Positions 13,180-23,222 of a stretch of 25,895 nucleotides of DNA are shown here, piece by piece. The notes beneath the pieces are model-generated. The model had not been told where the DNA came from. It was given only the letters and a program-made list of their open reading frames with translations, and searched no databases. Each line of letters starts with the position of its first letter. Position 1 is the first letter of the stretch. Position numbers and translations under genes: made by a program. The stretch comes from a virus. Location of the stretch: positions 1 to 25,895 of the IMG/VR virus record IMGVR_UViG_3300028298_000030; one strand, 5' to 3'.

Positions 13180-14007
13180 TTATTTCTTCAAAAAGCGGGG
13201 CGCGAGAGCGCATCTGCATTGGATAATCTGTGCTGCAGGTGCCCCCAGGCTTGAATCGGCGGGATACATCATTTTACAGGCTGGCACCCGGGTGTTCTTC
13301 GATGCCATGAAGGCCGGCACCTCGAACGCTTCATCGACATCAATCACGACACCTTTCATGGCAAGATGCGACGGGCGGGTACGGTGATCCCCGGTAGTAG
13401 GCAGCCACTCTTTAAAGGGTGCGTAATCCTTCGTCCTACTCCAGGCCGCTTCGTTGTAAGATTGCGTACTAACCGTGCGGGCGATTGCCTCTGCTCTGAC
13501 AGCCCCGATGCCGTTGTAGTGCTGCTGGATGATCTCGGAGAACTTCGTGATACCAGCGCCTTTTTTGTCCGCTTCTACGATATCCCGGATGATCTTCTTG
13601 TTCATCTCGCCTGTGAACCCTTTGAGATCCGAGAGTGAAACTGCGGACAGGTTGGCGATGGCTCGTTCATCGGGGCGGGTGAAATTCAGGCCGATATCGA
13701 CAACTCTGTGCTGAGGGCGGGTCTGCGCAACAAGAGTCTGGTGCGTGTTGTCGATACCGCGCCGGTAAGCCTGCAGGACATACTGCTGGATAAGTCTGCG
13801 GCCCGGCTGGTCGATGTATGCGATATTGAGGATCTCCAGCAGCCGTATGAGTTCCCCGATATCGAGCTGCTGCAGCCGGAGCATCGGACGGAGCTCTTCG
13901 AGAGCCTTTGCCCGGGCGTTCCGGATCAGGGCGAGAAACTCGCGGGTGAAGATGTTGCGCACGGGACCGGAGGGATCGGATACTCGCACCGGAGATTTCT
14001 CCCTCAC
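13180..14007 (-). CDS. MuF-like (SPP1 gp7) minor head morphogenesis protein, 275 aa, without a toxin extension
   Basis: RAEAIART; KEW...GD.RTRPSH; G.VI...E.F; MYP.D; I.CRC. Confidence 0.88.
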   Translation of the reverse strand: MREKSPVRVSDPSGPVRNIFTREFLALIRNARAKALEELRPMLRLQQLDIGELIRLLEILNIAYIDQPGRRLIQQYVLQAYRRGIDNTHQTLVAQTRPQHRVVDIGLNFTRPDERAIANLSAVSLSDLKGFTGEMNKKIIRDIVEADKKGAGITKFSEIIQQHYNGIGAVRAEAIARTVSTQSYNEAAWSRTKDYAPFKEWLPTTGDHRTRPSHLAMKGVVIDVDEAFEVPAFMASKNTRVPACKMMYPADSSLGAPAAQIIQCRCALAPRFLKK

Positions 14008-14285
14008 TTCAATGAATTATTTAAGTCTGTTGCTTTTGCCCAGTCCAGAATTTCGACCGAGATAGAATCCAGATACTTTCGGATCTCATCTCGTGTATTA
14101 AACTTTTTCGGGAGAATCCATAAGATAATACGTTCTGAGTAGTTCCAGGATGTTGAGATTCTCTCAGAGATTTGTTCATCCTTCTGCGCCTGCTGAGCAA
14201 TATTCCAGCGGACAAGAAGACGGGCACGACCGTCATCAATCCTGTCCAAAAATATTTCATCCGGTTTTGAGTTCGAATTTGGCAT
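14004..14285 (-). CDS. Hypothetical protein, 93 aa (possible fibre chaperone)
   Basis: GAGGT RBS; abuts the RT-like remnant; overlaps the MuF start. Confidence 0.55.
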   Translation of the reverse strand: MPNSNSKPDEIFLDRIDDGRARLLVRWNIAQQAQKDEQISERISTSWNYSERIILWILPKKFNTRDEIRKYLDSISVEILDWAKATDLNNSLK

Positions 14286-14414
14286 TTACGCTACCTCTTT
14301 TAATAATAACGGACGGATATACTTTCTCTCAAGTCGATACGAATTACACCAGGATAACCACCCGTAATAACTGGCAATGACATTTCTATCTTGTGGGGGG
14401 TCAAACCGTGACAT
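14286..14414 (-). pseudogene. Remnant of a DGR-type reverse transcriptase C-terminus (42 codons)
   Basis: Hand translation: MSRFDPPQDRNVIASYYGWLSWCNSYRLERKYIRPLLLKEVA*. SY.GWL..C.S..L..KY resembles the terminal thumb motif of DGR RTs; it lies downstream of a DGR-type VR. Confidence 0.65.
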
Positions 14415-15016
14415 TACGGCACTCCTTTTCCAGCGAAAAACGACGGGTCTAATTCATACCCCTCCGGGCATGGTTCAAATTTTTTGTCAGATAAAAACCC
14501 CAATCCCCCGGTTTTTGATTTGTAAAAGTAGGGGGCGGTTTCTGCCATATCTAACGCACGACTGATCTTCCTTGTCAGCCACGCCCATCGTTTACCGTTT
14601 TTAATATCATTGATGGTTCTGACGGGGATATTACGATTCCTGCTAATCTGTGAACAGTTCAGGGTTTTAAGGTCTCTCACAATTCCAATAATCATTAATT
14701 GGGTGAGTTTATTATTTCCATTTCTCTCACCAAACGCCTTAACGGTACGTCCTTTTTTTGACATATCTTGCATGTTGTCTTTCGGAGTTCCTAAAAAGAG
14801 ATGCGCGGAATTAATACACATATGATTGTCACAGGTATGACACACCAACACCCCGGCAGGAATATCACCGTATAGTTGTGAATGGATGTACCGGGCGACA
14901 GTCCATTTCTTACCGGATTTCATTAATGTTGGGTATCCCCCGGTGTTCGGTGCATGAGAAGTACAGATATGACAACCATTCTCATTCACTTCAAAGGTTA
15001 TCGGGCGGGTTTTCAT
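14414..15016 (-). CDS. HNH homing endonuclease (HNH_3-type plus a C-terminal HTH-like segment), about 200 aa
   Basis: True start MKTRPIT at 15016; VCHTCDNHMCINSAHLFLGTPKDNMQDM.KKGR; AT-rich. Confidence 0.88.
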   Translation of the reverse strand: MKTRPITFEVNENGCHICTSHAPNTGGYPTLMKSGKKWTVARYIHSQLYGDIPAGVLVCHTCDNHMCINSAHLFLGTPKDNMQDMSKKGRTVKAFGERNGNNKLTQLMIIGIVRDLKTLNCSQISRNRNIPVRTINDIKNGKRWAWLTRKISRALDMAETAPYFYKSKTGGLGFLSDKKFEPCPEGYELDPSFFAGKGVP

Positions 15017-15132
15017 TTCTTTTTCACCCGTCTTTCGGTATCCCAATAAGGAGAATGACATTTCGGACAAATTTTTGGGTGTTTGTCTCCGCGCTGTGCC
15101 CACTCGTGCTTGCATCTGTTGCATTTGTGTAA
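15013..15132 (-). pseudogene. Startless Zn-ribbon ORF (39 aa)
   Basis: LHKCNRCKHEWAQRGDKHPKICPKCHSPYWDTERRVKKK*; CxxC..W..CPKC..PYW pattern; its stop overlaps the HNH ATG; no start codon after the fibre's TAA TAA. Confidence 0.6.
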
Positions 15133-15135
15133 TTA

Positions 15136-16848
15136 TTATCGGTATTCGAGCCGCGAGCCAACATACCGATAGACACATGACGCCGCACTATCCAGATCCC
15201 AAGCGAAAGCGCCCGCATTACCCGCACTACGCCAATCGCCGCCCAGCAGGGCCGAGCGATTTCCGGTTGCCTGATAATAATAATCACAGAGATATTGGCT
15301 GCTGGACCCTCCTACGGTCAATGGCACGAAGAGATAATCGAATGTTGAAGAGAAGACAATCGAGACCCCATAGTTATTTGTTGAAGGTAATGTGAATCCA
15401 GTATCCACATAGGGATGTGCGAAGGTATCTTCAACAAAATCATGGTCTGCAATCCAAGGATTCCTATTGGCTTTGATGTTGATGCCGGCAATCCATTTCC
15501 AGATATTTCCCCAGAAATTCTCAATCCCAAAGATGCTGAATGCCTTTGCTGCTTCTCCGGTCTTGTAGTGCGTAACCAAGGGGCATTCTCCGGAGGTGTT
15601 ACCGAGGTCCACCCCGTTGGTGCCGACCCCTGCCGTAAATCCTGTGTTTATGGCGTTGTTGAACGTTGATCCCGCTGTTGCATCGGTGACTACTGTCACT
15701 CCTGCATAGACCGACTGTGAGTTCAGCGTAGCGTTCCGGATAATGAAAAGCAACTGGACGGCACAGACCGAGTTGAAGTCCATGAAGTTCCAGCCGGTCC
15801 CCCGGTTCTTTGCGAGCTGCCGGATGTTCGGCAATGTTGCCGTTGCATTGTTCCAGCCGCTTAACGGCTTTACACCGGCGATTGAGCAGAGGAGATCTCC
15901 GGTCGTTGCGGTGAAATCCAAGCCACCTGCATCGTTCAGAACGTATCCCCCCGTTCCCGGCGTGGTCTTGGCAATGGTGCATGTCACCCCACATGCAGTG
16001 GGCATAATGACGGTGGTTTTCAGCCCGGTAACGCTGGATGTGTAGGTGAGTTTATCTGCCCCCGTTTTTGCCGGCGTCCATACCGTTTCCTGATAATCGG
16101 TTTTCGCACCTGCTGCCACGATCTTGTCAACAACACCTTCGACGGTATCATCATCGAGGATAGCCACGGTGAAGATATAATTCCCACCGAGGGTAATTGT
16201 CAGATTCCCGGACGATGTTGGTTCTGCCGTTACCGTGATTGTATTGACTTCCGTTGCTGTTGCAGTGACGTCGTTTGCCGATCCTTCAAAGGCCGAAACG
16301 TAGATGTAATCCTTTTCGACCGTGTCCACGACGAATGCCGGGTGGACTTTGTAGCCCGTTCGCGCCACCGGGTATATCGTGAACCGATATTTGTTCGAGA
16401 GTGCATCAACCTTGTAGTAAAATTTCGGGATACGGACCATTACCTGCCCGTTCGAACCGGTGTAGGAGAATAATGGATCTCCATAAAAGGCGGTCACCAC
16501 TCCCGCATTGGAGAGGTTGCATCGTCTGATAGCCCCGAATACTGCATGACTCGCCCAGTCCCCGGCAGACATCGTGATGGCCGCACCAAACTGGTTTACC
16601 AGAGTCAAAGTCGGGCTGGTGGAATCTGTCGCCCACTCAACACCGATCGGTAAATCGAGGGGTGAATAGGGCAAGTCCCCCCATTTTAAACCCGGTGTGA
16701 CCGAACTGTCAGCAATTAAGACCTGTCCGTTCGTTCCGACAGGCAATCTTGTAGCTGAATCCGCCCCAACCCCTGCCGGGAGATCTCCTTTTGCATCCCA
16801 GAGAGGATCGGTCGCAAGCGATCGTGACCTGATGTTGGTCATGATCAA
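15136..16848 (-). CDS. Fibre/receptor-binding protein with a C-terminal CLec (Mtd-like) DGR-target domain, 570 aa
   Basis: N-terminal shaft repeat KGDL...RLPVGTNGQVL.AD; GQVMVRIPKFYYK, HPAF, IYVSAFEG, GIENFWGNIW.W; ends GG.W...AG.F...L......GSRL. Confidence 0.85.
   Translation of the reverse strand: MIMTNIRSRSLATDPLWDAKGDLPAGVGADSATRLPVGTNGQVLIADSSVTPGLKWGDLPYSPLDLPIGVEWATDSTSPTLTLVNQFGAAITMSAGDWASHAVFGAIRRCNLSNAGVVTAFYGDPLFSYTGSNGQVMVRIPKFYYKVDALSNKYRFTIYPVARTGYKVHPAFVVDTVEKDYIYVSAFEGSANDVTATATEVNTITVTAEPTSSGNLTITLGGNYIFTVAILDDDTVEGVVDKIVAAGAKTDYQETVWTPAKTGADKLTYTSSVTGLKTTVIMPTACGVTCTIAKTTPGTGGYVLNDAGGLDFTATTGDLLCSIAGVKPLSGWNNATATLPNIRQLAKNRGTGWNFMDFNSVCAVQLLFIIRNATLNSQSVYAGVTVVTDATAGSTFNNAINTGFTAGVGTNGVDLGNTSGECPLVTHYKTGEAAKAFSIFGIENFWGNIWKWIAGINIKANRNPWIADHDFVEDTFAHPYVDTGFTLPSTNNYGVSIVFSSTFDYLFVPLTVGGSSSQYLCDYYYQATGNRSALLGGDWRSAGNAGAFAWDLDSAASCVYRYVGSRLEYR
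15148..15258 (-). repeat. DGR variable region (VR); template partner not in the window
   Basis: 111 nt with only 10 adenines; 12 codons at the canonical Asn/Ile positions are all NNT (GAT CGT AGT AAT GCT GAT GAT AGT TGT TAT TAT GTT). Confidence 0.75.
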
Positions 16849-22295: not shown

Positions 22296-22804
22296 AAACT
22301 CTCTGCGATGATATCACCAATCTTGCGGGCGGCCTCGGGTGACAGAGAGGGAATGAGTGGGGTAGACCCGGTCTTAATTTCACCGGCGTGCTCGACATCG
22401 TGCTTATCCCTCCAGTCCTTCGACTGCCGGTTCTTGAGCCAGAAGATCTGAGCGGTCACATCCGGGGCGACCTGCTTGACTGTGTTCTGCGTTATTTGGC
22501 TTCCATCCGGGTTTTCGGTGACCCGTTTTTCCGTATATTCATACCCACAGGCACGCTGGTACAGCGAGGCCACAACCTTACTATCCGCCTGATCCTTGCA
22601 CTCTTTTATGGCTCCGGCAAATTCGGGATATTCCTTTCTCCACCGGATCAGGGTGTCTTCATCCACCCCGAGTGCCTTGGCAATCTCTGGACCGGTTTTA
22701 CCCATAAGTGCGAGATCACCCGCTTTTTTCGGGTGTATTTCGGGATTATACAGGGACGGGCGGCCTCGTTTCTTCTTCTTTTCAGGCGGCAATTTCTTTG
22801 TCAT
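22292..22804 (-). CDS. terS: Terminase small subunit, 170 aa
   Basis: GRPS.Y; HTH (EIAKALGV...TL.RW...YPEF); SLY.RA.GY; PDVTAQIFWLKNR...WRDK. Confidence 0.9.
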   Translation of the reverse strand: MTKKLPPEKKKKRGRPSLYNPEIHPKKAGDLALMGKTGPEIAKALGVDEDTLIRWRKEYPEFAGAIKECKDQADSKVVASLYQRACGYEYTEKRVTENPDGSQITQNTVKQVAPDVTAQIFWLKNRQSKDWRDKHDVEHAGEIKTGSTPLIPSLSPEAARKIGDIIAESL

Positions 22805-23222
22805 AATTACCCCCCTTTATCGGCAATTTATTACTTTTACTTGAATTACAAACTTTGTGAGCCGGAACAAGATTATCCAAATCCTGTGTACCCCCCTTTG
22901 AAATCGGTATAACGTGGTCTATACTAAAATCGGTGTAGTGAATCTGTTTTCCACAAATATGACAAGTAAAACCTTTTCTTTCTACGACTTCCAACCGCAT
23001 TTTGATATTGTCATAATTTGCTTTGGATCGTTTGCGCTTTTTTATCGTTCCATTTTTGATGTCTTCCTTAATTTTTCTCGGTTCAATTACGCGATAATAA
23101 TAATTAATCAATTTTATTTTTTGTTTTGTCTCTTGTTTCTCCATTCTATCGGCCAGATTAAGCCAATATATTTTTTCTTCGGTGGGAAGAATGTCAAACC
23201 AAGGTAAGCCTATATCCATCAC
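22782..23222 (-). CDS. HNH endonuclease (McrA/HK97 gp74-like), 146 aa
   Basis: CHICG...SIDHVIPISKGG....DNLVPAHKVCNSSK; AT-rich; overlaps the terS start. Confidence 0.9.
   Translation of the reverse strand: MMDIGLPWFDILPTEEKIYWLNLADRMEKQETKQKIKLINYYYRVIEPRKIKEDIKNGTIKKRKRSKANYDNIKMRLEVVERKGFTCHICGKQIHYTDFSIDHVIPISKGGTQDLDNLVPAHKVCNSSKSNKLPIKGGNYDKEIAA

Follow-up and report, generated by a model that had tools for sequence, protein, structure and literature searches.

The tail-fibre gene of a virus recorded in IMG/VR (IMGVR_UViG_3300028298_000030, a 25.9-kb linear sequence of 25,895 nucleotides (nt), called the window at its full length and estimated to cover about 54% of the genome) ends in the variable repeat (VR) of a diversity-generating retroelement (DGR). 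Where close relatives carry the template repeat (TR) and reverse transcriptase (RT) of this retroelement, the window holds a short segment with the remains of a Zn-ribbon open reading frame (ORF) and a predicted HNH endonuclease gene, followed by the last 42 codons of an RT. We regard it as close to certain that the ancestor possessed a DGR without avd and that a cassette of Zn-ribbon and HNH_3 genes replaced the spacer, the TR and RT codons 1–289. Because the TR is gone and the RT is reduced to its last 42 codons, the DGR no longer makes cDNA in cis, and there is very little doubt that its cassette is dead. DGRs are regarded as beneficial, domesticated retroelements, and how they disappear has barely been described.

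The 42-codon ORF (14286–14414; this and the other window features given with coordinates lie on the minus strand) had been noticed for its resemblance to the C-terminus of DGR RTs, and sequence comparison confirmed it as the 3′ end (thumb or C-terminus) of such a gene. Its peptide matched PHROG 1423 ‘reverse transcriptase’ (E = 2e-4) and aligned with residues 290–332 of the RT at locus L003 (67% identity, E = 8e-13); identity to five intact RTs was 48–76%, and 14 of the 15 residues invariant across the five are retained. In a word search of 5.8 billion proteins, the only longer proteins sharing words with this stub were two RVT_1 proteins (73% and 70% identity). The gene downstream of the stub, p93 (14004–14285, 93 amino acids (aa)), follows the RT C-terminus wherever a sequence runs past the RT. 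Compared directly with PDB entries the stub gave no meaningful match, and its link to solved RTs is transitive, via the L003 RT only, which matched the solved 328-aa RT 8ub7 (E = 1.5e-41) in an alignment reaching the S-x-x-G...W motif also found in the stub; 8ub7 is probably bRT. The window yielded no RVT_1 match and no RT fragment besides the stub.

The stub is tied to both neighbours as the sequence-only reading described, with TAATG forming the HNH stop and stub start and TAAATG forming the stub stop and p93 start, so that the stub abuts p93. An AAGGAG lies within the HNH 3′ end, 7 nt upstream of the stub ATG, and the stub sequence is identical in each sibling contig that covers it. We also observed that the last HNH codons (..GKGVP, GGA AAA GGA GTG; window 14417–14435) resemble the last codons of the L003 RT (..GKGVLQ, GGG AAA GGA GTA; L003:8683–8710), and that AAGGAG serves the next gene from both 3′ ends; this likeness could be chance or a shared Shine–Dalgarno constraint.

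The breakpoints can be placed by comparison with L003, in which 1159 nt (spacer, TR and RT codons 1–289) stand where the window has 718 nt (14415–15132). DNA homology between the two ends at the fibre stop and restarts exactly at the stub ATG, with a shared ATG TCA (A/C)G(A/G) TTT, and this ATG is an internal Met codon (MSRF) of the RT. Comparison of the loci supports the view that a segment bearing the HNH gene took the place of the TR and of some 87% of the RT. The original proposal that avd had been overwritten as well fails, there being no avd in the clade (see below).

At the left end of the inserted cassette, the Zn-ribbon ORF (15013–15132, 39 codons, CxxC...CPxC) has no start codon and continues in the frame of the fibre after TAATAA. 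The startless ORF described earlier is real, and relatives have full-length versions beginning with ATG, at L075 and L076 (41 aa) and at L071 (50 aa); in all three, an AT-rich, promoter-like leader precedes the gene and its stop overlaps the HNH start (ATGA). In the window, the first few codons are missing. As the insert is truncated at its two ends, the window copy arose by illegitimate recombination rather than by a clean insertion or clean homing. The HNH_3 gene itself (14414–15016) is intact, encodes 200 aa from MKTRP and passes the Pfam HNH_3 cut-off (25.5 versus 24.8 bits); it matched PHROG HNH endonuclease families with E-values down to 1.7e-23. The motif CHTCDN...CIN..H, with the catalytic His/Asn/His positions, can be read directly from the sequence, the start M-x-T-R-P-I-T is conserved among homologues, and the gene has no match in any DGR-intact relative. 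While the earlier description of an AT-rich HNH endonuclease was right about the endonuclease, we rejected AT-richness as a sign of foreign origin, as the TR–RT–p93 slot of DGR-intact relatives is equally AT-rich (GC 0.39–0.44 compared with 0.435 in the insert).

The fibre gene, which we assign as the receptor-binding gene and DGR target (15136–16848), matches phrog_5302 tail protein (E = 1e-72) and encodes 570 aa from TTG or 568 aa from the ATG at 16842. Its diversified tract, the VR (15162–15269), departs from the TRs of relatives at A columns only: in a comparison with the TRs of four relatives, changes fall at 19 of the 28 columns where A is invariant and at 0 of the 50 where another base is invariant (Fisher P = 1e-11). 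This upholds the claim that the fibre ends in a DGR-type VR. The GC-rich 3′ end of the VR, together with the last fibre codons (15139–15161), is the same in five VR alleles apart from a 2-nt gap in L067 and has fixed non-A bases opposite A in the relatives’ TRs; by analogy, it may act as an initiation of mutagenic homing (IMH) site. Between VR and stub the earlier reader had reported no avd, TR or RT palm, and searches of the whole window found no RVT_1 match, no TR-like repeat of the VR and no match to avd (PF05635). The reported lack of a post-VR hairpin also holds, in that none is significant in the window, and is uninformative, as none is significant in four relatives either, those with intact cassettes included. 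A 9-bp stem in the window was considered as such a hairpin and rejected because it is built from variable VR bases and is not conserved.

Using the fibre as a query, we found 42 related viral loci. Fibre homologues 68–84% identical to that of the window stand before TR and RT, and at four loci (L002, L003, L004 and L006) the fibre is followed by about 1.2 kb, the match to the stub and, at once, a p93 homologue. ORFs in the closest relatives give the order fibre(VR), TR, RVT_1 protein (334–335 aa) and p93. Their cassettes carry the full DGR signature, because VR/TR mismatches fall only at TR adenines in three relatives (25/25, 24/24 and 19/19). In nearly all of the more distant fibre relatives (34–45% identity), an RT end lies about 1.3 kb downstream, and each of two complete relative genomes has exactly one RT, at the locus between fibre and p93. 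This is the gene order that had been predicted for relatives, with the exception of avd, for which PF05635 gave no match when the window and three relative genomes, two of them complete, were searched; the gap between fibre and RT in L003 is only 293 nt, leaving no room for it. The missing avd is a property of this DGR clade and not a loss. Homologues of p93 (38–52% identity), the right-hand anchor of the locus, follow the RT in L002, L003, L004 and L006, the fibre in L007, a TR remnant in L008 and the HNH gene in L057 and L075.

The same slot is occupied by an HNH gene in other lineages. HNH homologues with 55–67% identity stand directly after homologous fibres in L057, L074, L075 and L076: L075 has a full Zn ribbon plus HNH between fibre and p93, L076 has the pair behind its fibre, and L057 and L074 have the HNH gene without the Zn ribbon. 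The HNH gene is followed directly by p93 in L057 and L075, and in L058 the two are separated by two small ORFs. None of the five HNH-bearing loci (L057, L058, L074, L075 and L076) has an RT remnant. We read these, from sequence, as related Zn-ribbon/HNH cassettes that occupy this slot in four or more fibre lineages besides that of the window. The earlier reading would have been undermined by relatives with the same arrangement and no history of a DGR; L075 and L076 do share the arrangement, yet the fibres of the HNH-bearing lineages all carry the adenine-mutagenesis signature, and because of this signature a DGR was once present in L075 and L076 too. The fibre-core tree places the window with L067, L002 and L059 (support 100/97), and on it lineages with an HNH gene and lineages with an intact DGR are interspersed. 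Resolution in the HNH tree is poor, but it separates L057 from L076, which are sisters by fibre. Because fibre genes recombine, such trees count occupancy events only roughly, and our reading is that there were at least four.

Other states of loss were seen in the same virus group. L007 is a clean deletion in which the fibre stop is joined to p93, the first 16 nt after the stop being the same as in L004. L008 (7512–7871; genome G003, 40.1 kb, with terminal repeats) retains its VR and 63 nt of the TR, with every mismatch between them at an A (14/14), and no RT was found anywhere in that genome. Two ENA contigs, P0098 and P0099, have 75-aa ORFs in which an Asn-rich frame encoded by the TR runs into the last ~17 codons of a DGR RT (..LSQKYIDPLMRKDVMRI), as if an internal deletion had removed nearly all of the RT; the TR of P0099 appears mutated. 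The group thus contains intact cassettes, TR only, TR with an RT tail, clean deletion, HNH with an RT stub, and HNH only, a set that resembles a dated series. Taken together, the loci show a putatively mobile endonuclease as a recurrent agent of DGR loss, here in what are probably viruses of methanogens.

We then turn to the population of the window itself, for which an exact look-up of p93 returned 16 contigs from many samples; all 10 of those listed have the HNH gene and the 129-nt stub gap. Samples containing this population include JGI 3300028156, 3300028191, 3300028299, 3300028619, 3300028621 and 3300029691, SRR8437247 and SRR8437272, and the runs underlying ERZ27248920, ERZ27248937 and ERZ27248953. 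L055 is exactly the window sequence, while L054 differs from it at 23 positions, all within 15162–15269, the rest of the 1738 nt compared being the same. Physical linkage to the HNH gene and the stub holds for five or more VR alleles, with 0–1 single-nucleotide polymorphisms in up to 7 kb of right flank, and the 90% cluster of the fibre adds two further VR alleles. The idea that the insertion had frozen one receptor-binding variant is therefore wrong for the population. Across the five alleles, 22 of 34 TR-A columns vary compared with 5 of 87 other columns (P = 3e-11), and the last ~25 nt of the VR are invariant. The alleles are young because their non-A backbone is identical, and therefore an RT with the TR of this lineage acted very recently. 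Several contigs (L056, L068, L069, L070 and L072) end at or beside the VR.

Variation also extends to the left junction and the fibre. Across the 40 nt that separate the Zn-ribbon remnant from the fibre stop, sibling contigs show four indel variants, paired largely one to one with VR alleles. In L067, 2-nt and 38-nt deletions fuse the fibre frame to the Zn-ribbon tail, so that the fibre ORF ends at the HNH start; this contig (L067:1–895, equivalent to window 15094–15946) matches the window at 90.6% identity for about 800 nt as far as the junction, and at 100% through the 7 kb that follow. L066 has 31 substitutions in about 160 nt of the fibre (window 15373–15535), with the same VR and otherwise complete identity over 12 kb. 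On these comparisons, the fibre upstream of the VR is evidently a mosaic formed by recombination. A further sibling contig (L071:1–526) is identical to the window from 15079 onward and upstream has a different, full-length Zn-ribbon allele together with 440 nt or more of non-coding, AT-rich DNA in which the motif CATAGAT(A/G)ACATAG recurs, and it lacks a fibre there; this upstream part has no match among the compared loci or in viral contigs.

A TR belonging to the lineage was sought in several ways. An exact pattern of it, with N at variable sites, matched nothing in viral contigs, a result that says little as the scan may leave out records close to the window. In metagenome contigs the same pattern matched the VR of one relative, L059, on a contig ending as the TR begins. 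A search for TR-frame ORFs returned those of relatives, none clearly of this lineage, and exact-protein look-ups extended the genome past the window by no more than 750 nt.

We propose the following course of events, beginning from an avd-less DGR in the order fibre(VR), TR, RT and p93. Almost certainly, a single non-homologous recombination swapped the cassette in, with both joints cutting into genes: the Zn-ribbon ORF lost its first few codons and promoter, and the RT was left with its last 42 codons from an internal Met. The stub may survive because p93 depends for its translation on signals in the 3′ end of the stub. The cassette very probably is one member of a mobile family that repeatedly takes this slot in related viruses. 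Shortly before the loss, the lineage’s own TR and RT would have generated the many VR alleles, and the endonuclease would then have swept through this VR-diverse, otherwise near-clonal population by homing or recombination. The left crossover would have fallen in the short invariant end of the VR, forced there by the mismatch-rich VR, so that recipient VRs were kept; crossovers at this end may have left several imperfect left junctions. Each genome would now be fixed in its VR, the population not. This account of alleles made before the loss and a subsequent spread of the endonuclease is the one we prefer, with our confidence in it evenly balanced; as a best explanation of the whole (replacement, pre-loss alleles and endonuclease spread together), we lean towards it slightly.

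Several observations weigh against this account. The VRs of the window and L054 differ at 23 positions yet share one left junction, which needs either a crossover within about 29 nt or diversification that postdates the insertion. Markers at so short a distance from an insertion site are normally co-converted in homing. No intact sibling RT was found among the 5.8 billion proteins, which include more than 10 assemblies of this population, the closest C-terminus being 73% identical. The window covers about 54% of the genome, leaving room for a second RT and TR, and cleavage by the HNH protein is a prediction from its sequence.

Part of this evidence would also fit a cassette that is dead in cis and a VR still diversified in trans by an RT with a matching TR, supplied from the unsampled ~46% of the genome, from a resident provirus or the host, or from a co-infecting relative; the target would then be live and not a fossil. 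Such a source would explain why at least five VR alleles are linked to HNH and stub with two of them sharing one junction, why variation is confined to TR-adenine columns (P = 3e-11), and why the IMH-like 3′ end stays intact and invariant. It also fits the many sibling contigs that end at or near the VR, as expected from VR heterogeneity within samples, the lack of an RT-bearing sibling allele in the protein collection and the presence of a DGR-type RT in a Methanoregula metagenome-assembled genome (MAG) with a related major capsid protein (MCP). However, the two complete relatives have just one RT, at this locus, and the L008 genome with its terminal repeats has none; the protein collection holds no RT C-terminus more than 73% identical to the stub, and pattern scans, which may leave out records close to the window, gave no TR. 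Diversification in trans would also leave the four indel variants within 40 nt of the left junction unexplained, and on balance we consider it possible and rather unlikely.

The order of events could be reversed, with the HNH cassette as the older resident and TR–RT as the invader in relatives, in which case the 42-codon ORF would not be a truncation product. HNH cassettes do hold the slot in several diverged lineages, but the direction of the truncations contradicts this order: of a 334-aa RT, only the final 43 residues are matched by the stub, which starts at an internal Met, and an RT gene cannot grow from its 3′ end, while the window Zn-ribbon ORF is itself 5′-truncated. All HNH-bearing fibres already show the adenine-mutagenesis signature, and the distant fibre relatives at 34–45% identity nearly all have the RT end about 1.3 kb downstream, making the reversed order scarcely credible. 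A different question is whether the ORF, instead of being a decaying stub, now encodes a small functional protein, such as an RT thumb fragment in a new role. It is open, has AAGGAG 7 nt before its ATG, is coupled to both neighbours, retains all but one of 15 invariant residues and is identical in all sibling contigs that cover it. Identity among near-clonal siblings is nevertheless uninformative on selection, no stand-alone homologue of similar length is known and the HNH-bearing loci L075 and L057 have no stub. Further, P0098 keeps just the last ~17 RT codons, fused to the TR frame, which argues that the 3′ end is retained for the expression of p93; an independent function is accordingly improbable.

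The prototype of DGRs is that of Bordetella phage BPP-1 (mtd-avd-TR-brt). The locus resembles it in having the VR at the C-terminal end of a receptor-binding protein, adenine-specific differences and a GC-rich, invariant VR 3′ end and, in part, through the homology of the relatives’ RT to the solved 328-aa RT 8ub7. Unlike BPP-1, the clade has no avd, no significant post-VR hairpin and a TR placed directly after the target gene, and the window has lost the TR and 87% of the RT. Free-standing phage HNH homing endonuclease genes (HNH_3, PF13392; PHROGs 1872, 6254 and 59) offer a second comparison. As in these, the window gene has an intact HNH_3 domain and a DNA-binding-like tail, close relatives differ in whether they have it at this locus, and its tree disagrees with that of the flanking gene. 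In contrast to them, it replaces 1.16 kb of functional DNA rather than sitting intergenically, has a small Zn-ribbon partner and belongs to an insert truncated at both ends.

In Epsilonunovirus crAss-like phages, DGR RT genes have been found fragmented or deleted with target and VR remaining (Viruses 2024;16:513, PMC11054128). Decay of the cassette by RT loss or fragmentation, with target and VR kept, is common to both cases; that paper, by contrast, names no HNH gene (0 occurrences), concerns bacterial hosts and gives no population data on VR alleles. A full-text literature search found no paper tying homing endonucleases to DGR loss. New here are the archaeal-virus setting, an RT stub that fixes the direction of the event and an RT-less allele with many VR versions. 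The last is a caution for DGR surveys, as a VR beside a dead cassette is not necessarily frozen: here, an RT-less allele has at least five VR versions.

More tentatively, and with less confidence than we have in the pre-loss origin of the alleles, the Zn-ribbon/HNH_3 family may specialise in DGRs, cutting TR–RT alleles and copying itself in their place. If it does, hypermutation systems of archaeal viruses, like those of bacterial phages, would be recurrently invaded and knocked out by a selfish nuclease, and a population could keep diverse receptor-binding tips after losing its diversifier, either through recipient VRs kept in homing or through an RT in trans. A nuclease that targets TR–RT would be a tool-like natural enzyme with a defined, conserved target, and a selfish element parasitising another.

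The virus is probably archaeal, with a host in the Methanoregulaceae, as its MCP is 71–76% identical to sequences in a Methanoregula MAG and a Methanoregulaceae chromosome; this agrees with the initial suggestion of an archaeal virus. The chromosome (L079; OY969564.1, 2092836–2100143) has a provirus-like region with an MCP 76% identical to that of the window, and no match to the fibre or DGR RT queries was found in the L079 genome.

Concerning the fibre protein, neighbours in ESM Atlas feature space include FGE-sulfatase clusters (17–29% of members), which is a lead only, and a sequence search against the PDB gave no useful match; the AlphaFold model of its C-terminal domain has a predicted local distance difference test score of 37.6 and is unusable for fold. 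A more distant relative, L036 (6001–11722), has fibre-like genes in a tandem array of three, all with VR-type C-termini, and an RT end after the array, which may represent a multi-target DGR.

Structural genes lie on the minus strand throughout the window, and the order of transcription is terminase and portal, three small genes, the fibre, the startless Zn-ribbon frame, the HNH_3 gene, the 42-codon ORF, p93, a phage Mu F-like head morphogenesis gene (13180–14007; PF04233, E = 5e-11) and then protease and capsid genes. Searching 13800–15600 against Rfam gave no intron or other RNA family and one sub-threshold snoRNA-like match (E = 0.1), and promoter and terminator scans were at chance level only. 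Lastly, the window has another HNH gene, unrelated to the first (145 aa, of PF01844 type in sibling contigs), at about 22782–23222, just upstream of the small and large terminase genes, which is the usual packaging-associated position.

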